Source of the DNA: an uncultured Acidobacteriota bacterium
Lineage (GTDB): Bacteria > Acidobacteriota > UBA6911
NCBI GenBank assembly: GCA_963809485.1
Contig: CAWEJX010000007.1
Coordinates: 1-64,000, forward strand
DNA: 64,000 nucleotides
Direction of reading: 5' to 3'
The stretch's first letter is position 1; every line of letters begins with the position of its first letter. The position numbers were made by a program, and so were the translations under genes. The notes under the pieces were generated by a model. That model made no database searches. It had not been told where the DNA came from and saw only the letters and a program-made list of their open reading frames with translations. Shown in pieces: positions 8 through 60,245 of the stretch.

Positions 8-2390
8 CTCGCTGTACCCCACAGGTGAGACTGTGGCTCAAGGGCCAGCCCTCACTCCATGGATCTGTAGAGCCAGCCGATAGCCTTGCGCCATGCTTGG
101 CAGACGGCCCAGCCCCCTCCACATACATGTTGTACCCGGATTGTCAGTTTTCCCTCTGCTCAGCCAACCACCCAGTTTGCCAATCCAGTGCATCGCCTGT
201 TTGGTACTGGGAACTGTATCGGCAATCTTGCCTGTTGCCCAGGCGCTCAGCACATGCCATTCATCTTCACTGAGTATTTGATTGCACGGTGTCTCCGGTT
301 TTTCTCGGCCCACCATAGTAAGCCAGTAGACTCGCCAAGCCACCACAAGGTCGATTGCTAGGCAAGCCTGAATGCTCTCGGCATCATCCAACCGACGATC
401 CTCGATACGGCATCCGCTTTTTATCGTGCGATGATATACTTCAATTCCCCAACGTCGGGCATACCAACTCAGTCGCTCGCAAGCATCTTCAAAGCTCTCT
501 GTCTTGACTGAAGTCAAAAGCATCCAATCAATAGGTTCTTTGACTTCGACGCCATAGTCGACTTCCCGCGCATACACCGCCCATACGCTCAAGGCTGGGA
601 GCTTGCTTTTTGACGGTGGGTTGAGCATTATTCGGGAAAACCTCACTTGAATCTTAGCTGTCCGAGCTGGGCTCGAACCTCGACGCGGGACTGCGACATC
701 GACCAATCCGGCTACGGGCTCTCCCTCCATCTTCTTCCACAGTTCTTCCTTATTGTCCTCCTCGATGACCGCTCGATTTCGAGCGCGATCGGCACGGATT
801 AGCAGCTTCGCACCTGATGTATCCTGTGCGGCTTCATGGAACAGCTCGTAGATGTCGGCCTCTCGATCGCCGACGCTCACAAGCATCGTATCCGAGCAGA
901 TCTTTTGTACCTCGCTTACGGCTCGGTAACTCACCAGCCATTTCTTGCTTTCTTTGGCTTCGATCGGCAGTTGGTGGCGGCGGCGCTTTTTGCCCACGTC
1001 GTTCGGATCCCGCGCCCAACATTGCACGTCGAGCAGTCCCAGCGGTATGCCCTCGGGAGTAAACGCCATCGTGTCGTGAAGCTCCAGCCCCATGGCGCTA
1101 TTCTGACTGTTATTGATTGGACCGACTCCCTCAGGTGGGTGCGCGGTGTAGTTCAGCGAACTCGTGTCCTGTACCGCCAGTATCACCTTATGCGTACGCA
1201 GCCGTTCAATGGTCGACTCAATGTGCGGTCTGAGTAGCTTCTGCATATCCACGTTGTCATTCTGAAAAAATCGGTACGCTGCTTTTGTCTTTGCTTTCGA
1301 GCCGCTGGATGCCTGCGGAATCAGTTCCCCAGGTTGCGCAAAAAAATCCGCCGCCAACGTGAACAGCCGGGATTTGAGCCGTTGATCGAAAAACTGCACC
1401 CGCCCGAATTCTTCTTCGGTCCAGTCGTCTGGGGCTTCGAACTGCGGCGTGTTTCCCAGCACTACCTTCGGCTCCGTACTTAGCACCTTTTGCCAATCGC
1501 CACGGAGCGGATACAAGTAGATGTCTTTGGGCCCTTTTGCTACCTTCCCGTTGGGATACGCCGTATCCTCCGCCGCTGTCTGCCCGACATGCAACCAATT
1601 AGCCGCTCGATAGCACGTCCCGACAAAACGGCTCGGGTCCACAAAGGTCTCGACCAACACCGGCCGGTAATTATAGCGGTCTACCCAGTCATCCGCCAGC
1701 CGGCCCAGACACTGGCTCAGTACATGCGAAGCCAGGTTCGGAACGTGCACGCCGGGCAAAATCAGAAATCGGCTATTACAAACAACCAGATTCAGATTGG
1801 CACGTCGAGCTGCCTCGGTCCAGCCAATATATTTATCTCGTTTCTTCAACCGCCACTGTGCAGCGCTGAAAGCCAGTGCTCCAACAAACCCATGTTCTGA
1901 ACTCTCTACCAAGTAGCGAATCTGTGCGCCGCACAGAGGCCCTTTGCCCAAATAATGGAATTGCTCCACGAGAGTATTCCATATCTTCGACGCCTTGCTG
2001 TAGCGGCTGGAGACAGGAGCAATGCTTATCTTACCGAGTTCATCCAGAGTGCATTCTAGCTCAGACACATCAGCCATTAGATCAGGCGGCGGCTTGGAGC
2101 TAGATCGATTGAAACAGGATTCCGCAGCCGCCGGCAGATTGAGAAAACCGCGGCGGTGCAATTCAAGCAGCGCTTTTCTGCAACTAACCTCCTTGATTTT
2201 GCCGTTAGGCGATTTCCACTGCAGAAGCTCGCAAACGCGCTGAGACAGGGCACAACGAGACAAAGAGGGATTGGCACTCAAGATCCCTCCAATCTGGGCA
2301 ATTACCTCCGCGCTGAACTCGCGCCCACACAGTCGCATGGGTTATGTATAGCATCAAACACCCACAGTGTCAACTGTGTCCCGCAGCGAG
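8..2390 (-). mobile_element. IS4-family (IS50/Tn5-like) insertion sequence, copy 1, 2383 bp
   Basis: Imperfect terminal IRs (CTCGCTGTACCCCACAG at 8; CTGTGTCCCGCAGCGAG ending at 2390). TSD GGCTCTGGC at 2391-2399, with its last 7 nt (CTCTGGC) at 1-7, cut by the window edge. Near-identical to 51360-53742. Confidence 0.95.
38..2338 (-). CDS. IS4-family transposase with N-terminal DUF4338 (DruA-like) domain, 766 aa
   Basis: Tn5-like motifs: DQRLKSRL, KAAYRFF, LAVQDTS, VGDREADIYEL, WYARRWGIEVYHRTIKSGC, LGGWL..PG. N-terminal ~290 aa has HYLG, NSRFLILP, VETFVDP..GTCYRAANW. Confidence 0.93.
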   Translation of the reverse strand: MRLCGREFSAEVIAQIGGILSANPSLSRCALSQRVCELLQWKSPNGKIKEVSCRKALLELHRRGFLNLPAAAESCFNRSSSKPPPDLMADVSELECTLDELGKISIAPVSSRYSKASKIWNTLVEQFHYLGKGPLCGAQIRYLVESSEHGFVGALAFSAAQWRLKKRDKYIGWTEAARRANLNLVVCNSRFLILPGVHVPNLASHVLSQCLGRLADDWVDRYNYRPVLVETFVDPSRFVGTCYRAANWLHVGQTAAEDTAYPNGKVAKGPKDIYLYPLRGDWQKVLSTEPKVVLGNTPQFEAPDDWTEEEFGRVQFFDQRLKSRLFTLAADFFAQPGELIPQASSGSKAKTKAAYRFFQNDNVDMQKLLRPHIESTIERLRTHKVILAVQDTSSLNYTAHPPEGVGPINNSQNSAMGLELHDTMAFTPEGIPLGLLDVQCWARDPNDVGKKRRRHQLPIEAKESKKWLVSYRAVSEVQKICSDTMLVSVGDREADIYELFHEAAQDTSGAKLLIRADRARNRAVIEEDNKEELWKKMEGEPVAGLVDVAVPRRGSSPARTAKIQVRFSRIMLNPPSKSKLPALSVWAVYAREVDYGVEVKEPIDWMLLTSVKTESFEDACERLSWYARRWGIEVYHRTIKSGCRIEDRRLDDAESIQACLAIDLVVAWRVYWLTMVGREKPETPCNQILSEDEWHVLSAWATGKIADTVPSTKQAMHWIGKLGGWLSRGKTDNPGTTCMWRGLGRLPSMAQGYRLALQIHGVRAGP

Positions 2391-2749
2391 GGCTCTGGCG
2401 GGGGACTCAAAGAGTTTGACAGCTCCGTATTTTGAAACGCTGACAAACGCCGATTTGTTCGGCGAGGGTCGGCGAGCAAAAGCCGATGAGGCGCTTCCGA
2501 TGGAGTTTTCTGCGGCGGCACTGTGGCAAGCGCCGTGCGGCAAGGAGATGAAGGGTATGAGAAACCGGGCATTTGCCACAGTGCCGCCGCAGAAAACTGT
2601 CCAGCGCGGAGCGCTGGCCCCTGCGGGGATCGGAAGCGCCTCATCGGCTTTTGCCCGCGTAAGTCAGCGTTCAAGACCGGCGTAACTCCTCCAACCGCTT
2701 TGAGTGGTTCAAATCTTTCAAGCCTCCGGTTTTGCCGGAGGCACCTGAC
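2391..2749 (+). mobile_element. Non-autonomous IS200/IS605-end element (PATE/MITE), copy A, long form
   Basis: Left end GGCTCTGGCGGGGGACTCAAAGAGTTTGACAGC and right end AACCGCTTTGAGTGGTT...AAGCCTCCGGTTTTGCCGGAGGCACCTGAC resemble IS200 tnpA element ends. Nested 26-bp IRs inside. No transposase. Four further copies in the window. Confidence 0.8.
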
Positions 2750-2762
2750 AGCCTGCCATCTT

Positions 2763-4052
2763 CTACATTTCCTGTTCGCGGAATTCGCCGGCCAGCCGGG
2801 TGAATAGCGCCAGGATGGCGATGCCCACGATTGTGTGCAGCGCCAGCATATACCACAGGTACTCGGGATGCCCCTGGTCGGTGAAGCGGCCGTAGAGGGT
2901 CGTGTAGGTCACGCCGCTCAATGTGCCCCCGATCATGGTCGCAAGGAAGTTCATTCCCATGTAAAGCCCCGCCTTTTCCCGCGGAGCTATCCACGTGATG
3001 TATTCCTGGATACGGGGAGAGGAAATCATCTCACCGACTGCAAAAAGAAATATTCCCAGGAATATCAGAGCCGGGACCGAAATCCGGGAATAGCCTATGA
3101 CACAGAATCCGGCGGTCGCCAGCAGAAGGCCGAAAAGGAAAGTCGGCATGGGCTTGCGTTTTTCAAAGATCCGGGACACCAGGAACTGGAAGATCATGAT
3201 GATGTATCCGGTGTGCGAAATTGTCTCGCCCAGGACCCTGCGCGTGCCGTCCTCGCCCTGGCTGGAAAAAAGCCCTGCCAGTGTAGGGCCGAGAACGGAT
3301 TCCATGCTGCGGTAAAGCCGGACAGTGTCCAGGCTGGCATCGACGTAGAGGGCGCAGAGGTTGAAGAAACTCCAGAACGGAAGCCAGAAAAAAAGGCCGA
3401 GCAGGATCAAAAATGCGGTCAATTTGAAATCGCAAAGAGCGGTGCCGATGTCCCGGAATTTCTGTTTAAGCGTCGTTCCCTCGATCTCCCTTTGCGGTTC
3501 CTTGTAGAAGAAGATCGTGATCAGCAGCATCAGAGTGACACATACAGCGCCCGCGAAAAACGCATAGTTCCAGGAGATCGCCCTGAGGTTGCCCATGACC
3601 ATTGGCCCGAAAGAGCCGCCGACATTCACCATCTGGTAAAAAATGCCGAACCCGAGGGACTTGTTGGTGCCGTCGGTGACGGCGCGCACCGTCCCGGCCA
3701 CCAGCGGCTTGAAAATACCTGCTGCAAGGCCGATGGAGAGCATCGTCAGAGCAATGCCCGAGAACGACCGGGTCACGATGAGCAGGAGAATCGAGGGCAG
3801 ATAGGCAAGATAGGAAATGATCAGGACCTTTTTAAAACCGAAGCGGTCGGCGAAGCTTCCGGAGATTACGGGGATGCCGTACGACAGCAAGAGAAAGATG
3901 CTCTGCACGATACCGAGTTGGGCCCGCGTGAAGCCCAGGGAAGCCATATAGATCCCGAAACCGAAATACACGCCGTAATAGGCGAATCGCTCCAGAACCT
4001 CGATGAAGTTGGCAATCCAGAAGACCCGGGGGAAAGGGGTGCGTTTGCTCAT
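2763..4052 (-). CDS. MFS transporter, POT/PTR peptide:H+ symporter-like
   Basis: EVLERFAYYG motif, ADRFG, GFGIFYQMVNVG, about 12 hydrophobic segments. GGAGG RBS before the ATG at 4052. Confidence 0.88.
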   Translation of the reverse strand: MSKRTPFPRVFWIANFIEVLERFAYYGVYFGFGIYMASLGFTRAQLGIVQSIFLLLSYGIPVISGSFADRFGFKKVLIISYLAYLPSILLLIVTRSFSGIALTMLSIGLAAGIFKPLVAGTVRAVTDGTNKSLGFGIFYQMVNVGGSFGPMVMGNLRAISWNYAFFAGAVCVTLMLLITIFFYKEPQREIEGTTLKQKFRDIGTALCDFKLTAFLILLGLFFWLPFWSFFNLCALYVDASLDTVRLYRSMESVLGPTLAGLFSSQGEDGTRRVLGETISHTGYIIMIFQFLVSRIFEKRKPMPTFLFGLLLATAGFCVIGYSRISVPALIFLGIFLFAVGEMISSPRIQEYITWIAPREKAGLYMGMNFLATMIGGTLSGVTYTTLYGRFTDQGHPEYLWYMLALHTIVGIAILALFTRLAGEFREQEM

Positions 4053-4332
4053 GCGTGCCTCCGTCGGAACGCTGCCATAATAAATCAAACCTGCCCCGGC
4101 CTGTCATTATTTGTGCGAAGACGCAGCGATTCCGCATCGGTGGGCGTAAGCGCTCCAAAAAGCTTCATTTGGGTCTGATTGGGGAATCTTCTGGATTCGC
4201 AATGGTTTTTTTATGGCTTCAAGCGGGACGGGCATCGTGGATTTTATCGATTGGGACCCCAAGAGTGGAAACCTCTCCCTGAGGCGAGTGGCGAATCCAA
4301 AGAGCTTGGGGGGAAAGCTCCTGCGCGCCGTT

Positions 4333-5553
4333 TCACGGAGCACGGACATGCTTGTTCTTCACGCCACTTGGGTAGATTTCTGAGATAAAGATCCGGATCC
4401 AGAAAAGTTCGGTTTTGCCTTTGCGGTCCCCCTTGAGGTTAAGGACAATAAAGGCATGGAAGAGATTGAAGGCTATGAAGACGAGCAGATAAAGCGCTTC
4501 GATGGCGTCGGGATCATGCTTATAGACATGGTCTGCATGCCAACCGTTGACCAGTTCGTTGAAACCGTAGTTCTCGATGTCCCACCGAGCATGGCCCAGA
4601 CGAACGACCAACTCCGTGCTCGTTAGGGATGGCGGGAGATTGGTGACCCACATCCACTCGCTGGTTTCCAGACTGAGCTCTTTTGTCGCCTGGCGCCGTA
4701 CATAATAGGATTCCTGAGAGCGCACCACACGCATCGGGCTTGTTACCTGCGGCCACGTGGTCAGATCCTGAAAATCCCACCAGCGGCATTTCCTCTTTCG
4801 ATAACTTCCCTCGCGCGGTTTATGGATCGTACATAAACCCAAAACATCTTGGTGAAGATCTCTCCGTTTATCCTTCAGGACCACCAGAATGTACTTGTGA
4901 TGAGACCATAAGAAATTGATGAAGGGAGCTTCACAGTAAGCCGCGTCAGCCAAGACCGCTTGGAAGGCACGCGGGTAATCTGACAAGACTCGGCTGAGCA
5001 GGCGCGTTGCTGTCGCCACTTCATCTTCTCCTGGCTTTTGTGGCTCCATATCCAGGAGAAGCCGAAGCCGCCCGGCCAACAGCATCAAAGTCACATTGCG
5101 ATGATAGTACTGGATCCTGTCTCCCGCCGCAGTGTGCACGATTCGTTGCAGGCATCCCGGACAATGACGCAAATAGCTGGCGTGTGTTTCATGCCCATCC
5201 AATACGGCGATGGTTAATCCCGCAATCCCTCCCAGCGCTTTGTTCCGTTTCAAACGCGCATAAATGTGATGCAATCCCTGTCTCAGCGCATCTCGATCTA
5301 CCTGCGCATAAACCCGCCCAGCACTGTCGGCGCTCGGCATCTCTGTTCCCAGCCACTTCTTCCAAAAGCGCGATTCTGCGCTCTCCACCAACGCATTCAA
5401 ACTGCCGAGCCGAACCCAAAACATCCCCAACCCTGCTTTAGCAAATACCGACGTCCGAATCCGGGGCGCAGGCCGCCTGTCCGACACGGGTCCAATCACC
5501 TGCTTGGACAAACCAAAGACTTTTTCCGCGTAGCCAATCAGCCTGCGGAGAAT
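4333..5553 (-). CDS. DDE transposase (start uncertain: ATT 5553, TTG 5511, or read-through from the upstream ORF)
   Basis: AVLDGHE, VLADAAY and ARWDIENYGFNEL DDE-type motifs. The frame is open back to the TAG at 5557-5559. Confidence 0.85.
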   Translation of the reverse strand: MLRRLIGYAEKVFGLSKQVIGPVSDRRPAPRIRTSVFAKAGLGMFWVRLGSLNALVESAESRFWKKWLGTEMPSADSAGRVYAQVDRDALRQGLHHIYARLKRNKALGGIAGLTIAVLDGHETHASYLRHCPGCLQRIVHTAAGDRIQYYHRNVTLMLLAGRLRLLLDMEPQKPGEDEVATATRLLSRVLSDYPRAFQAVLADAAYCEAPFINFLWSHHKYILVVLKDKRRDLHQDVLGLCTIHKPREGSYRKRKCRWWDFQDLTTWPQVTSPMRVVRSQESYYVRRQATKELSLETSEWMWVTNLPPSLTSTELVVRLGHARWDIENYGFNELVNGWHADHVYKHDPDAIEALYLLVFIAFNLFHAFIVLNLKGDRKGKTELFWIRIFISEIYPSGVKNKHVRAP

Positions 5554-6300: not shown

Positions 6301-6547
6301 AGTCAGGCACCTCCGGCAAAGCCTGAGGTTTGAAAGATTTGAACCGCTCAAAGCGGTTGGACTAGTTACGCTGGCCTTGAACGCTGACTTACGCGGGCAA
6401 AAGCCGATGAGGCGCTTCCGATCCCCGACTCTCGCCGAACAAATCGGCGTTTGTCAGCGCTTTGGTCAGCGTATCTCAGCGTTTCAAAATACGGAGCTGT
6501 CAAACTCTTTGAGTCCCCCGGCAGAGCGGGAGGCTTACCAATGTAGT
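6301..6547 (-). mobile_element. IS200-end PATE/MITE, copy B (lacks the inner module)
   Basis: Reverse complement of copies A and E with both terminal hairpins. Only one arm of the outer 26-bp IR is kept. Confidence 0.8.
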
Positions 6548-8606: not shown

Positions 8607-8770
8607 GAAGCGCTGCCAAACATCGGTTGGCCGACGAGGGATTGGCGGAAGGCGTAGAGAACCGTAGCTGCGAATATTGCAGGCGCAAAATAGCCGTAGC
8701 CGGCATACCACGCGGAGCTTTCAAGCGTAAAAGGAAAATAAATGACGACGGAAAGCGCGAACCGTGCAAG
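8594..8770 (-). pseudogene. Remnant 3' end (~55 codons) of a membrane Ser/Thr kinase paralog
   Basis: FPFTLESSAWYAGYGYFAPAIFAATVLYAFRQSLVGQPMFGSASLED* aligns with FPASLDVSAWYAGYGYAALALFAAIVIYAFRTSLGGRP of 17118-19805. Confidence 0.85.
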
Positions 8771-8981
8771 CACTACAGACCATCCCGGCGAAAAACGCCA
8801 TCTGCTGCAAAAAGCCTGCCCGTCCTTCATATGCGGGCTGCATCTGCCCCAGCTGATTTCACAGTGTTTTGGATATTCTTGGCTACACATGCCCGTCCGA
8901 ATTGGCTACAATGCACCCAAGCACTTTATCGAGAATTGCCAGGCAGGAATAGCATGTAACTACCTCCCAACGGAGGGACGC

Positions 8982-11758
8982 ATGCCTGAAATCGGTCAAA
9001 CCGTTTCGCACTTTAGGATCCTCGAGAAGATCGGCCGCGGAGGCATGGGCGTCGTCTATAAAGCCGAGGATACGCGGCTGGGACGGCATGTTGCGCTGAA
9101 GTTTTTGTCGGAAGCGCTGGCTAACGACCGCCAGGCGCTGGAGCGCTTCAAGCGGGAGGCGCGGGCGGCTTCGGCTCTCAATCACCCCAATATCTGCACG
9201 GTTCACGATATCGTTGAATTCAACGGGCAAACCTTCATTGCGATGGAGCTGCTCGAAGGACGCACTCTTGCAGGCAGAACGACGCCTGCCGGCATCGACG
9301 ACCTGGTCGATATCGCGATTCAGGTCGCCGATGCCCTGGATGCAGCCCACGCAAAAGGAATCGTTCACCGCGACATCAAGCCGGCCAACATCTTCGTCAC
9401 TGAAAGAGGGCAGGCCAAAATACTGGATTTCGGCCTGGCCAAGCTGCCGTCATCCAAAGCGCAAACCATGGAAACAGCCGCTACCACGCAGGAACCGGTC
9501 ACGAATCCGGGGAGCGCATTGGGCACCGTCGCCTACATGTCGCCCGAGCAGGCGCGCGGGGAAGATCTGGACGCCCGGACGGACCTGTTTTCCCTCGGGG
9601 TGGTTCTTTATGAGATGGCCACCGGAAGGCAGGCTTTCACCGGAAGCACCTCCGCCGTGATTTTCAATGCCATCCTCACAAAAGCTCCCACATCGCCGGT
9701 GCGGTTGAATCCCGAGATTCCCGATCAGCTGGAACAAATCATCAACAAGGCGCTGGAGAAGGACCGAAAGCTGCGCTACCAGAGCGCCTCAGAAATAAAA
9801 GTGGATTTACAGCGTCTGAAGCGGGACAGCGATTCGAAGCGTTCGGCTGCCGCCGTTGCAGCGGCCCCGCCCAAAAAGAGCCGTCGAATAAAAATCGCCG
9901 CCCTGGCGGTTATTGCCATTATGGCGCTGGCGGCAGGCGGATATTTCTATTTCAACCGCGCGCCGAAATTAACCGAGAAGGATTCCATAATTCTCGCCGA
10001 TTTCACAAACACGACCGGCGATCCTGTATTCGACGGAACGCTGCGGCAGGGTCTTTCCGCGCAGCTCGAACAATCCCCCTTCCTAAGGATCATTTCGGGC
10101 GACCTCATTGCCCAGACGTTGCGCCTGATGGAAAAGCCGCCCGACACGCGTCTCACGCAGGATGTTGCCCGCCAGGTCTGCCAACGCGTGAATGCGACAG
10201 TGACAATCGAAGGCTCGATCGCAACCCTCGGCAATCAGTATGTCCTCGGCCTCAACGCCGTGAACTGCAGCACCGGGGAGACTTTCGCCCGGGAGCAGGT
10301 CACGGCCGAAGGAAAGGAAAAGGTCCTCGATGTGCTGGGCGACGCTGCATCCAGGCTGCGGTCGAAACTCGGCGAATCCCATGCTTCGCTCGAAACTCAC
10401 AATGTACGCTGGCTCGGGCGACCACATCCTCTCTGGAGGCGCTGCAAGCTTTCAGCCGTGGCGAGCAGTGTTTTTTCAGAAGCGAACTCAATTCGGCGAT
10501 ACCATTCCTGGAACGGGCTATCAGTTTGGATCCAACTTTCGCCAAAGCCTATTCCTTGCTTGGAAGCCTTCAGTTGAACACAGGCAAAAGCGGCGATGAG
10601 GCACTCAAGAACATTAAGAGAGCTTATGAGCTGCGAGGTCGCGTCAGTGATGCTGAGAACTATTCTATTTCCTTCGTTTATTACCGCGATGCCATAGGGG
10701 ACTTGGAGAAGGCACTTGAGATTGAACAGCGATGTAAACAAGCCTATCCAAACAAGGCATTGACCTTTTTTGAAATCGGTTACCTTCAAAGCATGCTTGG
10801 CCGACACGAAGAAGCTCTCGCGTCGACGCTCGAATCCATCAGGCTGGAGCCAACGGTCATTTCCTATTTAAGGGCTATGTCCAACTACCTTGCACTGAAT
10901 CGATTGGATGAAGCCCGGGCAATGATTCAGGAGGCTCGGGCGCGAAAGATGGACCAACCTGCGTACTACCCATATATCCTGTATTTGATTGCCTTCAATC
11001 AAAAGAATAAGGCTGAGATGGCGGCAAATGAAACGGCAGCGCTCCGATATGTGAAACCTGAGGTACTGGAAATTAATCATGATGTTTATAGGGGCCGCCT
11101 GTCTTCTCTCCGGCATTCCCTGCCGCGTAATACAATGTCGCTATCAAATATGACTTGGGGTGCTCGGACATTGGCTTTGGTGGGTTACGCCGCCGAAGCA
11201 AAGGCCGCTGCGATCAATATTAGCAAAATGTCCAAGGATAGGGACCATTGGGGAAATGCAGCCATCACTTTGGGCCTCGCTAGAGATAAGGAAGGAGCGC
11301 AGAATCTGGCTGCTGATTTGAGCAAGCGCTTTCCTGAATCCACCTATGTCCGATTTTGCTTTGTGCCCTCCGTCCGAGCGCTTTTGGCTTTAGAGGAGGG
11401 GAAACCACACGAGGCTATCGATATTCTTGCTGAAACTGTTCCATATGAAATGATGCAGAACATGATTACCGTGTACCTTCGCGGTAAAGCTTACCTTGCA
11501 GCGCAACAGGGTGTAAAAGCCGCCGCCGAGTTCCAGAAGATGCTTGAGCACCACACCATCCAATTTTGGGACATTCTTCGGAACATACTACCTCATCTTG
11601 GTCTTGCCCGCGCCTACGCGCTGCAGGGCGACACGGCAAAGGCGCGCAAGTCGTACCAGGATTTCCTGACGCTGTGGAAGGACGCCGATCCCGACATTCC
11701 AATCCTGAAGCAGGCGAAAGCGGAGTATGCAAAGCTGCAGGAAGGGAATCTGCCATGA
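8982..11758 (+). CDS. Hanks-type Ser/Thr kinase with a TM segment and C-terminal TPR region; one frameshift near 10407
   Basis: [36 protein letters not shown] before ATG 8982. Adding one base at GTA-C(C)G-CTG gives ...[17 protein letters not shown]..., in frame with ORF 10526-11758. Confidence 0.88.
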
Positions 11759-17117: not shown

Positions 17118-19805
17118 ATGACTTCGCCATCGATGGTGCAGTGCCCGAAGTGTTCGGCGCAGATTCCAGCAGAGAGCAAGTTCTGCCTCTCTTGCGGTCA
17201 GGCTGTCAGCTCGCCGTCCCAGATGCCCACGGCTGAAGCTATTCAAATGGGGCCGGGGCTCCAAACCCGGCCAGACGGCTCTGGAGCGCCGTCACCACAC
17301 GTCGCACGGATAATCTCATCAGACTCGGTCCCTGCCGGAGGCTTTACGCCCGGCACAATCCTGGCCGATCGGTATCGGATCATCGGGCTGCTTGGGCGTG
17401 GCGGCATGGGGGAGGTCTATCGCGCCGACGACCTCAAGCTGGGACAGCCCGTCGCCTTGAAATTTCTCCCTCCCAAGCTCGCCGAGGATCCCGTTCGTCG
17501 GGAGCGCTTTTTCGCCGAAGTGCGAATCACACGGCAGTTATCGCATCCGAATATCTGCCGCGTGTACGACATCGGCGAAATTGATGGGCGCCAATTCCTC
17601 TCGATGGAGTTCATCGACGGCGAAGATCTGGCATCGCTGCTGAAACGCATCGGGCATCTCACAAACGAAAAGGCCTTGGACATCGCGCGTCAGCTCACGG
17701 CGGGACTTGCGGCCGCGCACGAACGGGGAGTGCTGCATCGCGACTTAAAACCCGCCAACATCATGCTCGACGGGCATGGGCGAGTCCGCATCACCGATTT
17801 CGGTCTCGCCATCGCACAGGAAGATGAATCTCAAGCGGCTGAAATCGCGGGAACTCCGGCCTATATGGCGCCGGAGCAGCTGGCGGGCAAAGGGGCCACC
17901 GTCCGCAGCGATATGTACTCCCTTGGACTGGTGCTTTACGAGATCTACACCGGCAGGAAAGCCTTCACAGCCACGACGCTGGCCGAGTTGCGTGAGCAGA
18001 AAGAAACGCACACTCCACGAGCCATATCTGAACTGCGCGAAGGAATGGACCCGGTAGTGGAGCGTCTCATTCGCCGCTGCATGGAGAAGGATCCGAATTC
18101 ACGGCCTGCGTCGGTGGCCCAACTGGCGCAGGCACTTCCGGGAGGGGACCCTCTTGCTGCTGCGCTTGCTGCAGGCGAGACTCCCTCTCCCGAGATGGTT
18201 GCCGCATCCGGATCGCGGGAAGGGCTTCGTCCGGGCATCGCCTGGGCGCTCCTCGCATTAATCTTTCTGGGGACGCTTGGCGTAATCTGGATGTACGATC
18301 GCACAATGCTGCACCGTAGGATCCCCTTCGATAAGCCGCCGGAAGCGCTGGCCGAACGGGTTCGACTTTTTCTCAAAAAGGTGGGTTGCTTGAATGATTC
18401 CGATTATCGTGTGTATGGCTATGTGGCTAACAACGATCTCTTGAACTACATTGAAAACTTCGACAAAAAATCAGACCGATGGAAAAAACTGGATGCGAAG
18501 GCAGTCCTTTTCTGGTATCGCCAGAGCCCGCGCTGGCTCATAAACCCACTGGATCGGCTTGCACCGGATAATCCCCCTATGCAATTCCCGGGAGAAGTTC
18601 TGGTCGTGCTGGATAGCGAAGGGCGCCTGGTATCATTTCGCGCTATCCCACAGTCGCAGCCGTCGCCTCCAGGATCCGATCATGCACTTGATTGGGCCGA
18701 TTTCCTCTCTGAAGCGGAAGTGGACATGTCACAGTGGAAGCAGGTCGAAACGCGATTCAAGCCGTTCCTATATGCAGACTCGAGATCCGCGTGGCAAGGC
18801 TCGCTTGGAAATTGGTCCGGCGAGCCCGCGTGGATCGAGGCGGCATCGCTTCACGGAGATCCAATCAGTTTTGAAGTCATGGGGCCCTGGTCAGTGGAAG
18901 CGAAGAACAAGCCTTCTCAGCCCCCAATGAGGGAACGCGTCATTGCAATAGGCCAGGGGCTGGTCCTAATCCCTGCCATTGTGGGCGGAATCTTCTTTGC
19001 CAGGAGAAACCTTCGGCTTGGCCGAGGCGACCGCAGCAGGGCTAAGCGACTGGGGCTTTTGACTCTGGGCATGCTGCTGGCAGCATGGCTGTTTGCTGTT
19101 CCTCGCTCGGCAGGCGTCGGGCTGCTCTTTTTCCCTTACCTGGCAGGCTTGATTTGGATTCTTTACATAGCGATCGAGCCCTTTGTACGCCGCCGGTGGC
19201 CGCAGGTCCTGGTTTCCTGGACGCGTTTGCTGTCAGGGGATTGGAGGGATCCCCGCGTTGCCCGGGATGCCTTGGCCGGTTGTGCGCTGGGAGTATTGAT
19301 AAACTGTATATTGCGTCTTGCGGATCTCCTGGTTCCAGTGCGGCGACCTGCGCTGCTCGATTTCGAAGCCATCATAGGAGTTCGCTTTTTCATCTCTGAG
19401 CTTTTGATAAGTCTGACTATCAGTCCACTTCTTTGGTCGTTGGCAGTGATGTGCCTCTTGTTTCTTTTGGCACTACTGATAAGAAATCAGAAAGCTGCCT
19501 TTGCCGCATTCATCCTAATTCTCATGTGGGTGAATTGGAGGGGAGATATCTGGAGCTTGGCGACGAACCCGGTAAATTGTTTCCTATATCTGTTCGTGTT
19601 AATGCGGTTTGGGTTGCTTGCGATCGCCGTCGGCACGATGGTCGGCGTCATTTCCGGGTATTTTCCTGCATCCCTGGATGTGTCCGCCTGGTATGCCGGC
19701 TACGGTTACGCAGCTCTTGCGCTATTTGCCGCCATTGTTATCTATGCCTTCCGCACCTCGCTCGGCGGCCGCCCGCTCCTCGCCTCCTCCCGCTTTGACG
19801 ACTGA
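17118..19805 (+). CDS. Zn-ribbon/Ser-Thr kinase/multi-pass membrane protein, paralog B, intact, 895 aa
   Basis: CPKC..CLSC ribbon; [28 protein letters not shown]. Then a TM, a ~210-aa soluble domain and about 8 hydrophobic helices. Confidence 0.92.
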   Translation: MTSPSMVQCPKCSAQIPAESKFCLSCGQAVSSPSQMPTAEAIQMGPGLQTRPDGSGAPSPHVARIISSDSVPAGGFTPGTILADRYRIIGLLGRGGMGEVYRADDLKLGQPVALKFLPPKLAEDPVRRERFFAEVRITRQLSHPNICRVYDIGEIDGRQFLSMEFIDGEDLASLLKRIGHLTNEKALDIARQLTAGLAAAHERGVLHRDLKPANIMLDGHGRVRITDFGLAIAQEDESQAAEIAGTPAYMAPEQLAGKGATVRSDMYSLGLVLYEIYTGRKAFTATTLAELREQKETHTPRAISELREGMDPVVERLIRRCMEKDPNSRPASVAQLAQALPGGDPLAAALAAGETPSPEMVAASGSREGLRPGIAWALLALIFLGTLGVIWMYDRTMLHRRIPFDKPPEALAERVRLFLKKVGCLNDSDYRVYGYVANNDLLNYIENFDKKSDRWKKLDAKAVLFWYRQSPRWLINPLDRLAPDNPPMQFPGEVLVVLDSEGRLVSFRAIPQSQPSPPGSDHALDWADFLSEAEVDMSQWKQVETRFKPFLYADSRSAWQGSLGNWSGEPAWIEAASLHGDPISFEVMGPWSVEAKNKPSQPPMRERVIAIGQGLVLIPAIVGGIFFARRNLRLGRGDRSRAKRLGLLTLGMLLAAWLFAVPRSAGVGLLFFPYLAGLIWILYIAIEPFVRRRWPQVLVSWTRLLSGDWRDPRVARDALAGCALGVLINCILRLADLLVPVRRPALLDFEAIIGVRFFISELLISLTISPLLWSLAVMCLLFLLALLIRNQKAAFAAFILILMWVNWRGDIWSLATNPVNCFLYLFVLMRFGLLAIAVGTMVGVISGYFPASLDVSAWYAGYGYAALALFAAIVIYAFRTSLGGRPLLASSRFDD

Positions 19806-41368: not shown

Positions 41369-41573
41369 AGTCAGGTACCTCCGGCAAAGCCGGAGGCTTG
41401 AAAGATTTGAACCGCTCAAAGCGGTTGGAGGAGTTACGCCGGCCTTGAATGCTGACTTACGCGGGCAAAAGCCGACCTTCGCCGAAGAAATCGGCGTTTG
41501 TCAGCGTTTTAAAATACGGAGCTGTCAAACTCTTTAAGTCTCCCGGCAGAGCCGGGGGTTTGCCAATGTAATT
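41369..41573 (-). mobile_element. IS200-end PATE/MITE, copy C (shortest complete form)
   Basis: CCTCCGGCAAAGCCGGAGG, AACCGCTCAAAGCGGTT and CCCGGCAGAGCCGGG hairpins. Interior reduced. Confidence 0.8.
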
Positions 41574-49845: not shown

Positions 49846-50049
49846 CCTTTACGGGATTCCGCTCCAAGCGTCCGTTTGCGCGTCACTCGATTGAGCCGCT
49901 GATATGTGCCGGCATGAGCCCATGAGGTGCTTCCGATGCCGCAAGAGAGTGGTCCCTGTCTATGGGCACAACAGCAACCGATGAAAGATAAAATCAATTT
50001 CATGCGTCATAAATATTCCTGCAGCTTTGGGAGCCGCATAATATCGAAT

Positions 50050-51162: not shown

Positions 51163-51190
51163 TTCGAACATCTTTGGGGGATTTCGAGGT

Positions 51191-51359
51191 TCAACCGCTC
51201 AAAGCGGTTGAAGGAGTTACGCTGGTCTTGAACGCTGACTTACGCGGGCAAAAGCCGATGAGGCGCTTCCGATCCCCGCCGAACAGATCGGCGTTTGTCA
51301 GCGTATCTCAGCGTTTCAAAATACGGAGCTGTCAACTCTATGAGACCCCCGGCAGAGCC
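51191..51359 (-). mobile_element. IS200-end PATE/MITE, copy D, interrupted by IS4 copy 2 (continues 53743-53770)
   Basis: Same body as copy B. The terminal hairpin CCCCCGGCAGAGCC|AGGGG is split by the IS. The outermost right-end hairpin is absent. Confidence 0.8.
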
Positions 51360-53742
51360 CTCGCTGCGGGACACAGTTGACACTGTGGGTGTTTGATGCT
51401 ATACATAACCCATGCGACTGTGTGGGCGCGAGTTCAGCGCGGAGGTAATTGCCCAGATTGGAGGGATCTTGAGTGCCAATCCCTCTTTGTCTCGTTGTGC
51501 CCTGTCTCAGCGCGTTTGCGAGCTTCTGCAGTGGAAATCGCCTAACGGCAAAATCAAGGAGGTTAGTTGCAGAAAAGCGCTGCTTGAATTGCACCGCCGC
51601 GGTTTTCTCAATCTGCCGGCGGCTGCGGAATCCTGTTTCAATCGATCTAGCTCCAAGCCGCCGCCTGATCTAATGGCTGATGTGTCTGAGCTAGAATGCA
51701 CTCTGGATGAACTCGGTAAGATAAGCATTGCTCCTGTCTCCAGCCGCTACAGCAAGGCGTCGAAGATATGGAATACTCTCGTGGAGCAATTCCATTATTT
51801 GGGCAAAGGGCCTCTGTGCGGCGCACAGATTCGCTACTTGGTAGAGAGTTCAGAACATGGGTTTGTTGGAGCACTGGCTTTCAGCGCTGCACAGTGGCGG
51901 TTGAAGAAACGAGATAAATATATTGGCTGGACCGAGGCAGCTCGACGTGCCAATCTGAATCTGGTTGTTTGTAATAGCCGATTTCTGATTTTGCCCGGCG
52001 TGCACGTTCCGAACCTGGCTTCGCATGTACTGAGCCAGTGTCTGGGCCGGCTGGCGGATGACTGGGTAGACCGCTATAATTACCGGCCGGTGTTGGTCGA
52101 GACCTTTGTGGACCCGAGCCGTTTTGTCGGGACGTGCTATCGAGCGGCTAATTGGTTGCATGTCGGGCAGACAGCGGCGGAGGATACGGCGTATCCCAAC
52201 GGGAAGGTAGCAAAAGGGCCCAAAGACATCTACTTGTATCCGCTCCGTGGCGATTGGCAAAAGGTGCTAAGTACGGAGCCGAAGGTAGTGCTGGGAAACA
52301 CGCCGCAGTTCGAAGCCCCAGACGACTGGACCGAAGAAGAATTCGGGCGGGTGCAGTTTTTCGATCAACGGCTCAAATCCCGGCTGTTCACGTTGGCGGC
52401 GGATTTTTTTGCGCAACCTGGGGAACTGATTCCGCAGGCATCCAGCGGCTCGAAAGCAAAGACAAAAGCAGCGTACCGATTTTTTCAGAATGACAACGTG
52501 GATATGCAGAAGCTACTCAGACCGCACATTGAGTCGACCATTGAACGGCTGCGTACGCATAAGGTGATACTGGCGGTACAGGACACGAGTTCGCTGAACT
52601 ACACCGCGCACCCACCTGAGGGAGTCGGTCCAATCAATAACAGTCAGAATAGCGCCATGGGGCTGGAGCTTCACGACACGATGGCGTTTACTCCCGAGGG
52701 CATACCGCTGGGACTGCTCGACGTGCAATGTTGGGCGCGGGATCCGAACGACGTGGGCAAAAAGCGCCGCCGCCACCAACTGCCGATCGAAGCCAAAGAA
52801 AGCAAGAAATGGCTGGTGAGTTACCGAGCCGTAAGCGAGGTACAAAAGATCTGCTCGGATACGATGCTTGTGAGCGTCGGCGATCGAGAGGCCGACATCT
52901 ACGAGCTGTTCCATGAAGCCGCACAGGATACATCAGGTGCGAAGCTGCTAATCCGTGCCGATCGCGCTCGAAATCGAGCGGTCATCGAGGAGGACAATAA
53001 GGAAGAACTGTGGAAGAAGATGGAGGGAGAGCCCGTAGCTGGATTGGTCGATGTCGCAGTCCCGCGTCGAGGTTCGAGCCCAGCTCGGACAGCTAAGATT
53101 CAAGTGAGGTTTTCCCGAATAATGCTCAACCCACCGTCAAAAAGCAAGCTCCCAGCCTTGAGCGTATGGGCGGTGTATGCGCGGGAAGTCGACTATGGCG
53201 TCGAAGTCAAAGAACCTATTGATTGGATGCTTTTGACTTCAGTCAAGACAGAGAGCTTTGAAGATGCTTGCGAGCGACTGAGTTGGTATGCCCGACGTTG
53301 GGGAATTGAAGTATATCATCGCACGATAAAAAGCGGATGCCGTATCGAGGATCGTCGGTTGGATGATGCCGAGAGCATTCAGGCTTGCCTAGCAATCGAC
53401 CTTGTGGTGGCTTGGCGAGTCTACTGGCTTACTATGGTGGCCCGAGAAAAACCGGAGACACCGTGCAATCAAATACTCAGTGAAGATGAATGGCATGTGC
53501 TGAGCGCCTGGGCAACAGGCAAGATTGCCGATACAGTTCCCAGTACCAAACAGGCGATGCACTGGATTGGCAAACTGGGTGGTTGGCTGAGCAGAGGGAA
53601 AACTGACAATCCGGGTACAACATGTATGTGGAGGGGGCTGGGCCGTCTGCCAAGCATGGCGCAAGGATATCGGCTGGCTCTACAGATTCATGGAGTGAGG
53701 GCTGGCCCTTGAGCCACAGTCTCACCTGTGGGGTACAGCGAG
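51360..53742 (+). mobile_element. IS4-family insertion sequence, copy 2, 2383 bp
   Basis: Same IRs as copy 1. 9-bp TSD GGCAGAGCC at 51351-51359 and 53743-53751. Confidence 0.96.
51412..53712 (+). CDS. IS4-family transposase with N-terminal DUF4338-like domain, 766 aa
   Basis: Matches copy 1. The only protein difference I found is MVAREK versus MVGREK, plus a few silent changes. Confidence 0.93.
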   Translation: MRLCGREFSAEVIAQIGGILSANPSLSRCALSQRVCELLQWKSPNGKIKEVSCRKALLELHRRGFLNLPAAAESCFNRSSSKPPPDLMADVSELECTLDELGKISIAPVSSRYSKASKIWNTLVEQFHYLGKGPLCGAQIRYLVESSEHGFVGALAFSAAQWRLKKRDKYIGWTEAARRANLNLVVCNSRFLILPGVHVPNLASHVLSQCLGRLADDWVDRYNYRPVLVETFVDPSRFVGTCYRAANWLHVGQTAAEDTAYPNGKVAKGPKDIYLYPLRGDWQKVLSTEPKVVLGNTPQFEAPDDWTEEEFGRVQFFDQRLKSRLFTLAADFFAQPGELIPQASSGSKAKTKAAYRFFQNDNVDMQKLLRPHIESTIERLRTHKVILAVQDTSSLNYTAHPPEGVGPINNSQNSAMGLELHDTMAFTPEGIPLGLLDVQCWARDPNDVGKKRRRHQLPIEAKESKKWLVSYRAVSEVQKICSDTMLVSVGDREADIYELFHEAAQDTSGAKLLIRADRARNRAVIEEDNKEELWKKMEGEPVAGLVDVAVPRRGSSPARTAKIQVRFSRIMLNPPSKSKLPALSVWAVYAREVDYGVEVKEPIDWMLLTSVKTESFEDACERLSWYARRWGIEVYHRTIKSGCRIEDRRLDDAESIQACLAIDLVVAWRVYWLTMVAREKPETPCNQILSEDEWHVLSAWATGKIADTVPSTKQAMHWIGKLGGWLSRGKTDNPGTTCMWRGLGRLPSMAQGYRLALQIHGVRAGP

Positions 53743-53790
53743 GGCAGAGCCAGGGGTCTACCAATAGAATCAACTCCCGGAACTATAAAA

Positions 53791-58989: not shown

Positions 58990-59847
58990 TCAACACGAAA
59001 CCCGCCCTTCAAACAATGCGAGGAAGATAGCCGCGGCAGTCAGATCAGCGGCAGTCCCGGGATTCAGTTCGTGGGCCGGATCGCGCAGTCCCCGGTCCAT
59101 TTCCGCCAGTTCCGCCCGACCCCCGGGAGTGAAGACGCCGCCCCGCGCCAGAACTTCTCCGGCCCAGAGGGAAACCCGCCGCGCTTCCTCAATGCCCTTT
59201 TTGCGCGCGATGAGGGTATCCGGAACCCGGCTGAGAACGGTCAGGAAGGCTTGCACAACCGCAGCGGAAAAACCAGCTCCGCGGGATGAGGCTTCTTTCA
59301 GGGCCGGAAGGCCGATTTCAAATGTGATTGCATAGCCGGTGACATATTCCCGGGCTACCGCATCGCGCTCCCGGGCCAGAGACATGGCCTGCAACAAGGT
59401 AACCGACGGTTCTTCTGCGATGTCTGCTTGCGGGACATGGCCCAGACCCGCAGGCTGCGCAAGCCTGATGGCGGCGTATGCAAGCCGGGCATCTTCCACG
59501 GTAAGCGAATCCAGGACAGCGCCCAGGTTCTGCCGGAGATCCTGCACGCAGTCTGCCGATGCCATGCAGGCCTTGACGAGCGGAACCAGCAACAGGACCA
59601 TGCCCAGGTTCGTGTTGGATCGCACACTCCTGCGCGTATCTGCAACGGCCTGAAGGACTGTGTGCCCGACCCCCATCGGGCCCGCATTCTCGAGCGCCGG
59701 CCCGATGGCAATGGCGCTGACAAGAAAATCTTCCAGCGTCGTGTCCGGAAAATCATGCGAGCGGTTTACGTTGCCGGGCTTGGGCGCACAGGCCTCCAAA
59801 ATGCAGGCCATTTGCGCAAGCCGGGAGATCCGTTTCTCAGTATTCAT
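58990..59847 (-). CDS. CitG-like triphosphoribosyl-dephospho-CoA synthase family protein of H4MPT clusters (Orf7-like)
   Basis: ACILEACAPKPGNV, NTNLGMVLLL, PDTLIARK, NPGTAADL. Confidence 0.85.
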   Translation of the reverse strand: MNTEKRISRLAQMACILEACAPKPGNVNRSHDFPDTTLEDFLVSAIAIGPALENAGPMGVGHTVLQAVADTRRSVRSNTNLGMVLLLVPLVKACMASADCVQDLRQNLGAVLDSLTVEDARLAYAAIRLAQPAGLGHVPQADIAEEPSVTLLQAMSLARERDAVAREYVTGYAITFEIGLPALKEASSRGAGFSAAVVQAFLTVLSRVPDTLIARKKGIEEARRVSLWAGEVLARGGVFTPGGRAELAEMDRGLRDPAHELNPGTAADLTAAAIFLALFEGRVSC

Positions 59848-60245
59848 AATTACATTGGTAAACCCCCGGCTCTGCCATGGGACTCAAAGAGTTTGACAGC
59901 TCCGTATTTTGAAACGCTGAGAAACGCTGATAAAAGCGCTGACAAACGCCGATTTGTTCGGCGAGGGTCGGCGAGCAAAAGCCGATGAGGCGCTTCCGAT
60001 GGAGTTTTCTGCGGCGGCACTGTGGCAAACGCCCGGTTTCTCATCCCCTTCATCTCCTTGCCGCACGGCGCTTGCCACAGTGCCGCCGCAGAAAACTGTC
60101 CAGCGCGGAGCGCTGGCCCCTGCGGGGATCGGAAGCGCCTCATCGGCTTTTGCCCGCGTAAGTCAGCGTTCAAGACCGGCGTAACTAGTCCAACCGCTTT
60201 GAGCGGTTCAAATCTTGCCTACGGCTTTGCCGGAGGTACCTGACT
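59848..60245 (+). mobile_element. IS200-end PATE/MITE, copy E, long form
   Basis: Colinear with copy A except that the 43-bp core is inverted. Fills the whole gap between the RimK-like stop and the citG-like start. Confidence 0.82.

Follow-up and report, generated by a model that had tools for sequence, protein, structure and literature searches.

Two sites in the window, the whole 64,000-nucleotide stretch of Acidobacteriota DNA analysed here, carry a short core in opposite orientations, enclosed at each site by nested inverted repeats. This raises the question of whether the core is part of a working invertible switch, belongs to a small mobile module that inserted either way round, or was inverted passively. 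An earlier note on this DNA put forward a miniature switch carried on a mobile element and named the other two readings as alternatives. The nested palindrome is carried as an insert within the long form of a ~395-bp non-coding mobile repeat, and the two orientations of its core probably go back to one or a few historical hairpin-loop inversions in this PATE-like repeat that were then copied by transposition.

Anatomy of the repeat

The window contains long-form copies A and E of the repeat, short-form copies B, C and D, and two IS copies, the positions of which are given in Table 1 together with the parts of the nested palindrome.

Table 1. Positions in the window of the repeat copies, the parts of their nested palindromes, the target site of copy E and the IS copies.
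Feature	Position	Strand	Remarks
Copy A, long form, core 'A'	2391..2750	+	Rest of left end beyond window start
Outer inverted repeat, left arm, copy A	2472..2501	+	Perfect over 2476-2501
Inner inverted repeat, left arm, copy A	2504..2529	+	Hairpin stem
Core, copy A	2530..2572	+	43 nt, hairpin loop region, 'A' orientation
Inner inverted repeat, right arm, copy A	2573..2598	+	
Outer inverted repeat, right arm, copy A	2629..2658	+	Same arm also carried by short forms
Copy B, short form	6301..6544	-	Single outer arm, without inner palindrome
Copy C, short form	41369..41569	-	
Copy D, short form without right-end hairpin	51190..51359	-	Remainder at 53743-53767
TAATT target pentanucleotide	59847..59851	+	Directly 5' of copy E
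Copy E, complete long form, core 'E'	59852..60245	+	394 bp
Outer inverted repeat, left arm, copy E	59971..60000	+	
Inner inverted repeat, left arm, copy E	60003..60028	+	
Core, copy E	60029..60071	+	43 nt, 'E' orientation
Inner inverted repeat, right arm, copy E	60072..60097	+	
Outer inverted repeat, right arm, copy E	60128..60157	+	
IS copy 1, IS4/Tn5-like	8..2390	-	2383 bp; 766-aa transposase at 38-2338
IS copy 2	51360..53742	+	Inverted relative to copy 1; 2379/2383 bases identical

The architecture described in the earlier note is borne out. Copies A and E both contain an outer and an inner perfect 26-bp inverted repeat, of which the outer arms extend to 30 nt at 97% and the inner arms to 31 nt at 94-97%, and the number of matches expected by chance for either 26-mer is 0.00 (100 shuffles). 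The outer structure is a 179-bp nested palindrome and the inner module is 95 bp long. The core of copy A corresponds to the reverse complement of the core of copy E at 41 of 43 positions, and the ribosome binding site and start codon motif, AAGGAGATGAAGGG(T/G)ATG, is located within it. As in hairpin-associated small inversions, it is the loop between the two arms that is reversed. The flanking sequence remains colinear, and both copies have the same 30-nt piece on the right of their inner palindrome. As single-stranded DNA the element is predicted to fold into a long branched hairpin (-133 kcal/mol, z = -14).

Both IS copies sit in the loop of a left-end hairpin of the repeat: copy 1 breaks that of copy A at 2390/2391, and copy 2 splits that of copy D, with a 9-bp duplication, GGCAGAGCC. 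Copy E is inserted with the stop codon of a RimK-like gene on one side and the start codon of a CitG-like gene on the other. A promoter scan of this locus returned no promoter-like site, and a terminator scan returned two terminator-like hairpins, no more than in shuffled sequences. A search of the 64-kb window against Rfam gave 0 matches at the gathering thresholds; at E <= 1 there are generic long-hairpin matches to miRNA-precursor models, far below threshold.

Genome-wide there are ~280 copies of the repeat, 102 of them long, with 282 left-end and 278 right-end anchors; these counts are approximate because genome completeness is 95.7% and contamination 7.3%. The 187 copies with both ends fall into two length groups, 370-409 bp (81 copies) and 170-299 bp (106 copies). 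The inner inverted repeats form 102 pairs, all but one (101) with a 43-nt spacer, and perfect arms are retained in 68 of the 102 copies. A limited, non-exhaustive literature search found no publication describing this Acidobacteriota repeat in the texts that it covered.

Ends, target site and strand bias

The ends of the repeat are sharp, with random sequence outside; they read TAATT followed by ACATTGGTAAAC on the left and CCTGACT on the right. The T(A/G)ATT directly 5' of the repeat is 78-97% conserved in 237 copies and is itself preceded by random sequence. Across the ~280 copies the left end carries the hairpin CCCCCGGC-TCT-GCCGGGGG and the right end the hairpin CCTCCGGC-TTT-GCCGGAGG, both of which form in single-strand fold prediction. 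There is no target duplication in the 187 complete copies, and flank k-mers are at chance for k >= 2.

Empty sites agree with this pattern. TAATT is present in both of the clean empty sites, and comparison with their occupied counterparts shows clean insertion of the repeat 3' of TAATT without target duplication. One was found among 17 loci of the independent assembly G006 and the other through synteny of the window with G006 contig C9; the TAATT of locus E stands in its empty G006 orthologue. Counterparts in G000 of the other G006 loci are mostly also occupied, rearranged or unmatched, and a third empty-site comparison (L016 with C12) was discarded as not clean. Classification as a classical DDE-derived MITE was rejected, given that there is no target duplication and that the resemblance between the ends is confined to their palindromic hairpins.

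The repeat is inserted with a strong strand bias, with orientations of 4+/67- on contig C20 and 19+/0- on C6, and the predicted genes on C20 are strand-balanced (444/450). There is a correlation between orientation and GC skew (Spearman 0.59, p = 5e-4, 31 blocks), and on C7 the bias reverses at the single dnaA match, from 2+/14- on the left to 11+/2- on the right. Copies A and E break this rule, as they are the two '+' copies left of dnaA. Assuming that dnaA marks the origin, this reversal places the top strand on the lagging-strand template. IS608 follows the same lagging-strand-template rule, and insertion is 3' of a tetra- or pentanucleotide (TTAC for IS608), according to the available text of PMC5027513.

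The repeat behaves like a non-autonomous element of the IS200/IS605 type (a PATE) that lacks a transposase of its own, and a Y1 enzyme acting from elsewhere would be the candidate for moving it. Y1_Tnp matches occur at four loci of the genome, and neither the repeat ends (short-word BLAST) nor the hairpins (pattern search) were found at any of them. Among 30 genomes from the genus, 25 have Y1_Tnp genes and two have the long module of the repeat, a distribution that is uninformative. There is no match to the TnpB-type domain PF07282 in the genome. Six left-right end pairs lie 1-6 kb apart and enclose apparently ordinary host frames, none of which, as judged by eye from ORF starts, looked like the transposase of an autonomous parent.

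Core orientation and subfamilies

Tallied over all 102 long copies, the core is in the E orientation in 73 and in the A orientation in 29. Six columns of the flanks and two positions of the core distinguish the two groups. A tree was built without the core, from 99 rows and 277 columns of flank sequence; it requires 7 changes of orientation (6-7 in bootstraps), compared with 24.6 on average for shuffled labels, and none of 500 shuffles was as low as observed. The near-duplicate copy C21_178720_A and the truncated or long-branch copies C6_396594_E and C8_319234_E were left out of this tree, as were five alignment columns holding IS sequence; a branch uniting copy A with C20_241822_E, well supported on the first flank tree, rested on the IS sequence in these five columns and was discarded. 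The best reading of these data is that the core orientations mark two old subfamilies and are not the states of a working switch.

The number of loop inversions behind the subfamilies could be anywhere from one to about seven. The well-supported branches of the tree force at least two orientation changes, and the AU test does not reject a single E clade (p = 0.248). The flank pattern aaaeee occurs in both orientations, and the discordant A-oriented copies form a graded flank series (aaaeee, eaaeee, eeeeee). Some copies have mosaic flanks, which fit either repeated inversion or gene conversion. Copy A itself has E-type flanks and a core sequence of the E-subfamily type (GAAGGGT), yet its core is in the A orientation; among A-oriented copies it stands nearest to the E subfamily, and it may connect the two subfamilies or represent a rare re-inversion.

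Orientation is the same at all three orthologous or duplicated loci that could be compared, at 1.4-11% divergence, as read from contigs in which minor orientations would not show. The copy at C20:675381 and its G006 orthologue are both E (89.4% identity over 8 kb), as are those on the metagenome contig L056 and at C8:341378 (93.5% identity), and copy A shares the A orientation with its near-duplicate at the contig end of C21 (98.55% over 1728 bp). All eight complete copies outside this genome are E, three of three in the independent assembly G006 and five of five on public metagenome contigs, and the A orientation was seen in this genome only. Among 24 sequencing runs listed, available as Logan contigs, the best contains 0.39 of the sampled words; four were compared, and the E form is present in contigs of these four as well. 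A run contig covering the E-type core has a depth of ~350 compared with ~10-16 on the flanks, values that, coming from contigs, give no per-locus orientation frequencies and bear on switching in neither direction. At locus E, runs X1, X2 and X6 contain a bridging contig in which 182 other letters replace 411.

The ribosome binding site and start codon of the core open a frame that has no coding signature. It remains open for at least 60 codons, to the end of the extracted stretch, in 62 of the 73 E copies, and is 45 aa long in 17 of the 29 A copies. Substitutions are spread evenly over the three codon positions (97/101/105 in the E arm, p = 0.85; 13/18/16 in the A arm, p = 0.67), and frame-shifting indels and stop codons interrupt the frame in several copies. 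On these grounds the core was rejected as a gene.

Origin of the inverted core and relation to known systems

In the mechanism that we propose, a Y1 (HUH) transposase would act in trans and move the repeat as single-stranded DNA at the replication fork. The loop of a source copy would have flipped a single time or, at most, a handful of times, either by a polymerase template switch between the complementary arms at the fork or by recombination between the arms, and transposition would then have multiplied each of the two orientation forms. From the earlier note, carriage on a mobile element stands and passive loop inversion, by whichever of these putative routes, becomes the best explanation, whereas the working switch is not supported.

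An active phase-variable switch would have a recombinase flip the 43-bp core and redirect the ribosome binding site and ATG, with both orientations coexisting at each locus. It draws on the perfect 26-bp inverted repeats around a segment with an RBS-like AAGGAG and an ATG, on the four serine-recombinase matches in the genome (C8:595k, C7:637k, C20:1017k and C21:61k, found with a Resolvase domain that covers serine recombinases only), and on copy A, which looks as if flipped in place. None of the four matches falls in the window. Orientation clusters on the flank tree far beyond shuffled labels, the core sequence type follows it as well, the comparable loci have kept it (in contigs, not reads), the copies in other assemblies are uniformly E, and the frame behind the ATG is broken in several copies and free of codon-position bias. 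A spacer of 33-43 bp would in addition be too short for synapsis of two duplex sites, and we regard such a switch as very unlikely. A related view grants the flip a function: the two mirror-image subfamilies, with their outward-facing ribosome binding site and start codon, would be a portable translation-coupling device reading out of either end of the repeat, with the flip, either rare or induced during single-strand transposition, choosing the direction. The E-orientation frame runs to a TAA exactly at the left terminus of the repeat and the A-orientation frame runs toward the other end; at locus E, 2 nt separate this TAA from the start codon of the CitG-like gene, and the insertion has displaced the sequence that formerly lay upstream of that gene. 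We give this functional reading little credence.

If the inner 95-bp palindrome were instead a tiny mobile module that had inserted independently, in either orientation, into the larger repeat, its perfect inverted repeats would be its boundaries, and the existence of forms without it, both the short forms and four copies with a 16-nt spacer between the outer arms, would be expected. However, all 102 inner palindromes occupy one fixed position within a single kind of host element, and no others turned up in the genome, where the inner arms searched singly give 103 and 105 matches compared with the 102 pairs. In the four copies a pair of CTGCGG direct repeats bounds a clean deletion that removes the inner palindrome, and these are therefore losses and not empty sites. 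The ends of the module are palindromic, so a reversed reinsertion would be indistinguishable from a loop inversion. Independent insertion is disfavoured as highly improbable. Passive inversion might alternatively have been frequent, with some 6-7 or more template switches among 100 copies and orientation a fast-evolving, functionless character. The 7 changes required by parsimony, the at least two forced by supported branches, the occurrence of aaaeee flanks in both orientations and a case study of recurrent small inversion in plastid DNA, cited in the accessible part of PMC12371153, all speak for this. Against it, a single E clade is compatible with the tree, the graded A-oriented series fits one evolving source lineage, gene conversion can also produce mosaic flanks, and the orientation of orthologous copies has been stable from before the two species diverged; frequent inversion is thus unlikely. 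Palindromes and high-copy repeats assemble poorly, and the assembly carries contamination, so that a mis-assembled palindrome could in principle have given an inverted core. The 29 A and 73 E copies nonetheless each have their own substitutions and unique flanks, the E form recurs in independent assemblies and run contigs, and the A form has consistent diagnostic bases in core and flanks, leaving an artefact with a negligible chance.

The preferred reading, of one or a few inversions followed by transposition, implies that a switch-like sequence can arise passively, through a single flip of the loop in a source copy that is then spread by transposition. A real switch would rank as the smallest known invertible element, a reading that the evidence speaks against. 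For annotation, the repeat adds an abundant element family, with a TAATT target and no target duplication, to an uncultured soil and wetland lineage of the Acidobacteriota. The direction of replication can be read from its orientation, which is of help in locating the origin. The repeat is, in addition, a natural system for the stability of long perfect palindromes, in which arms persist and clean deletions occur between short direct repeats.

The Hin/hix, Gin and Fim systems and the invertible promoters of Bacteroides share with this locus inverted repeats flanking a segment that is found in both orientations, and hix sites, like the arms described here, are 26 bp long. The known invertible segments are, to our knowledge, an order of magnitude longer than this spacer. 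In contrast to the invertase switches, the repeat has no serine-recombinase match beside it in the window, and orientation is inherited with the subfamily sequence and does not vary freely. The REP/BIME, ERIC, Correia and BOX families are likewise abundant, mostly intergenic, palindromic and modular, and occur in long and short forms; for REPs, a link to Y1 (RAYT/TnpAREP) proteins is given in the available text of PMC6006769. The present repeat differs from REPs in being much longer, in not being clustered around a RAYT gene, and in having a defined TAATT target and strict strand asymmetry.

The closest parallels for its proposed transposition are PATEs and the IS200/IS605 family, which move by the peel-and-paste activity of a Y1/HUH TnpA. 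Like these, the repeat is non-coding, lacks classical terminal inverted repeats and target duplications, has end hairpins, and is inserted 3' of a fixed pentanucleotide, here TAATT, with one strand on the lagging-strand template. As with PATEs, copy number is high and the genome holds no parent element; PATE-like elements are mobilised in trans, as set out in the accessible text of PMC10055086. The repeat differs in that neither a TnpA with matching ends nor a TnpB-type domain was found in this genome. We know of no feature of the IS200/IS605 family that corresponds to its 155-bp nested perfect palindrome.

For the inversion itself, the nearest likeness is to a class of small inversions, 4-50 bp long, that accompany hairpins in the non-coding DNA of plastids (Kelchner & Wendel 1996, cited in the part of PMC12371153 available). 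As described there, a short loop is reversed (4-50 bp in plastids, 33-43 bp here) while stems and flanks stay colinear, in a passive mutational event favoured by hairpin structure. The setting is different: here the loop belongs to a multicopy bacterial mobile element, in which one inversion would have spread to dozens of loci and come to define a subfamily.

Nested hairpins, ends and insertion sites of the repeat

Copies A and E, the two long-form copies of the repeat in the window, each contain an outer inverted repeat enclosing an inner one, and the nested perfect 26-bp arms that the earlier note reported in both are confirmed, lying within the longer imperfect arms listed in the table. The two 26-mers have four and six mismatch-free occurrences in the window, versus 0.00 in shuffles. 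Equally sound is the observation that the 43-nt cores are reverse complements of each other (41/43 positions) and the asymmetric flanks are colinear. As single-stranded DNA, copy E is predicted to form a single long branched hairpin on either strand (-133 kcal/mol, z = -14, and -134 kcal/mol, z = -15), and no match to Rfam families was found.

Positions of the repeat features, IS copies and selected genes in the window
Feature	Position	Details
Outer inverted repeat, copy A	2472-2501 / 2629-2658	30 nt, 97%; contains perfect 26-mers
Inner inverted repeat, copy A	2504-2534 / 2568-2598	31 nt, 94%; contains perfect 26-mers
Core, copy A	2530-2572	
Outer inverted repeat, copy E	59971-60000 / 60128-60157	
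Inner inverted repeat, copy E	60003-60033 / 60067-60097	
Core, copy E	60029-60071	
Copy E insertion site with junctions (element at 59852-60245)	59845-60247	
IS, IS4/Tn5-like	8-2390 (-)	2383 bp; also at C4:338k and C20:242k of the genome
IS, IS4/Tn5-like	51360-53742 (+)	2383 bp
DDE_Tnp_1 transposase gene	4333-5511 (-)	392 aa; just past MFS gene
Ser/Thr protein kinase genes	8742-10577, 17118-19805, 38281-41232	
MtrB/PioB-type porin gene	49927-51162	
MCH cyclohydrolase gene (H4MPT-type cluster)	61130-62092	

A BLAST search of the source genome (G000; 6.04 Mb in 21 contigs, each 55-58% G+C) with copy A returns 856 HSPs, and the end anchors number 282 on the left and 278 on the right. Both ends were recognised in 187 copies, 81 of 370-409 bp and 106 of 170-299 bp. 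Window copies B, C and D, like the other short forms, have the right outer arm only; in the long form there are ~155 bp more, which begin with an inverted copy of that arm and enclose the inner palindrome. The genome-wide search for the inner repeat that the earlier note proposed yields 102 inner-repeat pairs, with a 43-nt spacer in 101, perfect arms in 68 and an identical position within the element in all 102. In four copies the outer arms are only 16 nt apart, reflecting an exact deletion between two CTGCGG direct repeats. Outside this genome, the inner 26-mer is present in a single other species-representative genome, the related G006.

Both ends of the element are sharp, with random sequence on the left followed by a conserved T(A/G)ATT and then ACATTGGTAAAC, and with CCTGACT on the right followed again by random sequence. 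The left end forms a hairpin, CCCCCGGC-TCT-GCCGGGGG, and the right end a similar one, CCTCCGGC-TTT-GCCGGAGG. At C20:734866-734909 a 44-bp remnant comprises one hairpin with both termini where G006 (locus L031) has a complete short element; it looks like a 'solo hairpin' left by a deletion in which the two similar end hairpins recombined. At copies with both ends, target duplications of at least 2 bp are absent. Two clean empty sites are available; each already contains TAATT, and the element is inserted on its 3' side. At locus E, G006 has TTCATAATT joined directly to CATGGGC, versus TTCATAATT, the 394-bp element and CATGGGC in G000; at C7:275k the roles are opposite, G006 being filled and G000 empty.

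Copy E lies in an H4MPT-type cluster, inserted into the 3 nt that separate a RimK-like ATP-grasp gene (stop codon) from a CitG-like gene (start codon); the stop codon is rebuilt by the last T of the element, and the junction is uninterrupted in G006. Assembled contigs of related strains from three sequencing runs (X1, X2 and X6), with flanks 2-3% different, bridge window 59851-60263 with 182 other letters versus 411 in G000; the same TAATT site may be occupied there by a short form or by an oppositely oriented copy. Elsewhere the window is rich in Ser/Thr kinases, three large ones falling within 33 kb (a zinc ribbon in one, TPR repeats in another), and has CarboxypepD_reg-type outer-membrane barrels; together with the H4MPT-type cluster this content is loosely consistent with the Acidobacteriota assignment.

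Core orientation and sequence lineage

The core lies in the E orientation in 73 of the 102 long copies and in the A orientation in 29, one of these being a near-duplicate of copy A on contig C21. Six flank columns distinguish the two groups, as does the core itself when read in the same sense, with GGAGGTT in most A copies versus GAAGGGT in E copies. Divergence from the group consensus is 3.3% in flanks and 6.0% in core for A copies, and 2.5% and 2.2% for E copies. On a maximum-likelihood tree built from flanks only, with the whole inner palindrome excluded (99 rows, 277 columns), orientation needs seven changes (bootstrap range 6-7) versus a mean of 24.6 for shuffled labels, and none of 500 shuffles is that low. 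Well-supported branches force a minimum of two changes, and a tree with all E copies together is not rejected (AU test, p = 0.248).

Discordant copies in the A orientation can be ranked by their flanks (aaaeee, eaaeee, eeeeee) into a graded series, and their cores are E-type or intermediate. Copy A is the extreme of this series: the scorable flank markers are all E-type or of neither type, its closest relative by flank sequence is an E copy (99% over 255 columns), and its core matches the reverse complement of the C4:204927 core exactly. A single source lineage undergoing stepwise change and one flip would look like this series, which is compatible as well with repeated flips or gene conversion.

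Orientation is concordant at all three comparable loci. C20:675381 and its G006 orthologue are both E within 8 kb of colinear sequence (89.4% identity), C8:341291-342448 and a public metagenome contig (L056) are colinear at 93.5% and both E, and a near-duplicate of copy A at the end of contig C21 is likewise A (98.55% over 1728 bp, without the IS). This last segment, C21:178607-180334, repeats copy A and the adjacent MFS-transporter gene (window 2391-4117) with the left end intact, and is either from a second strain in the assembly (completeness 95.7%, contamination 7.3%) or a recent segmental duplication. Outside G000 the long copies are E in 3/3 cases in G006 and in all five complete copies on public metagenome contigs; the E-type core is present at high depth in assembled contigs of four runs, which are blind to minor orientations at a locus. 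As orientation is randomised neither with respect to lineage nor between species, flipping on ecological time scales, and with it the working switch suggested by the earlier note, is unsupported. Invertase synapsis of two duplex sites 33-43 bp apart seems sterically implausible. The ribosome binding site and start codons noted in the core are present and open frames of 45 codons rightwards in A copies and at least 63 leftwards in E copies, but there is no evidence for a peptide-coding role: inter-copy substitutions are spread evenly over codon positions, and the frames are disrupted by indels of 1, 2, 4, 10 and 23 nt and by stop codons.

Chromosomal orientation and insertions into the hairpins

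The strand of the element is strongly biased by contig (4+/67- on C20, 19+/0- on C6, 1+/20- on C1), predicted long reading frames on C20 are balanced (444/450), and the strands of neighbouring genes show no pattern. Across 31 blocks, each of 200 kb, element strand and GC skew are correlated (rho 0.59, p = 5e-4). On C7, the contig whose first 64 kb form the window, the counts are 2+/14- to the left and 11+/2- to the right of the genome's single dnaA match (454.6 kb; C7:454563-455039). Because orientation flips exactly there, the repeat could show how contigs lie with respect to the origin. Left of dnaA, the sole '+' copies are A and E.

The transposase of the 2383-bp IS (766 aa) combines a DruA-like N-terminal domain with Tn5-type DNA-binding and dimerisation domains. 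All four genome copies lie at one and the same point in the left-end hairpin loop of the repeat, and wherever both sides are readable a 9-bp duplication flanks the IS; the two in the window are inverted relative to each other and bracket ~49 kb. In G006 (locus L028) the right-end hairpin loop contains a coding-free element of ~510 bp with similar ends, again flanked by a 9-bp duplication. The pattern looks like that of an IS whose targets are hairpins in another mobile element. The DDE_Tnp_1 transposase of the window is a second, unrelated one, and the end of C21 coincides with the start of an IS bearing it.

Transposition, loop inversion and known systems

IS608 and ISDra2 are described as inserting 3' of a specific tetra- or pentanucleotide, with the active strand on the lagging-strand template (PMC5027513), and the repeat shares with them 3' insertion at a fixed pentanucleotide and lagging-strand orientation. 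Orientation bias by itself is not unique to this family (PMC3971601). PATEs, coding-free derivatives of IS200/IS605-type elements, are mobilised in trans (PMC10055086). There are four Y1_Tnp matches in G000, none with element ends beside it, and a TnpB-type domain was not found in that genome; across 30 genomes of the genus, Y1 genes are present in 25 and the long module in two. The transposition route of this PATE-like element is one that we largely infer.

The complement of a perfect palindrome S-L-S' is S-rc(L)-S', so a template switch between the arms gives exactly the flipped-loop product. A polymerase would quit its template in one arm, copy the complementary template and return in the other arm; a double exchange between arms on sister duplexes would give the same product. 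An element that is partly single-stranded during its life, with stems of 26-31 bp, would provide good chances for such flips, and we infer that the core was flipped by a mechanism of this kind. The structure is a hairpin-loop inversion by which two subfamilies can be told apart in an abundant, apparently undescribed PATE-like mobile repeat, and both the element and the type of mutation belong to known kinds. The core flip is comparable to the hairpin-associated small inversions (4-50 bp) common in plastid DNA, for which the same kind of arm-to-arm explanation is described as accepted (PMC12371153).
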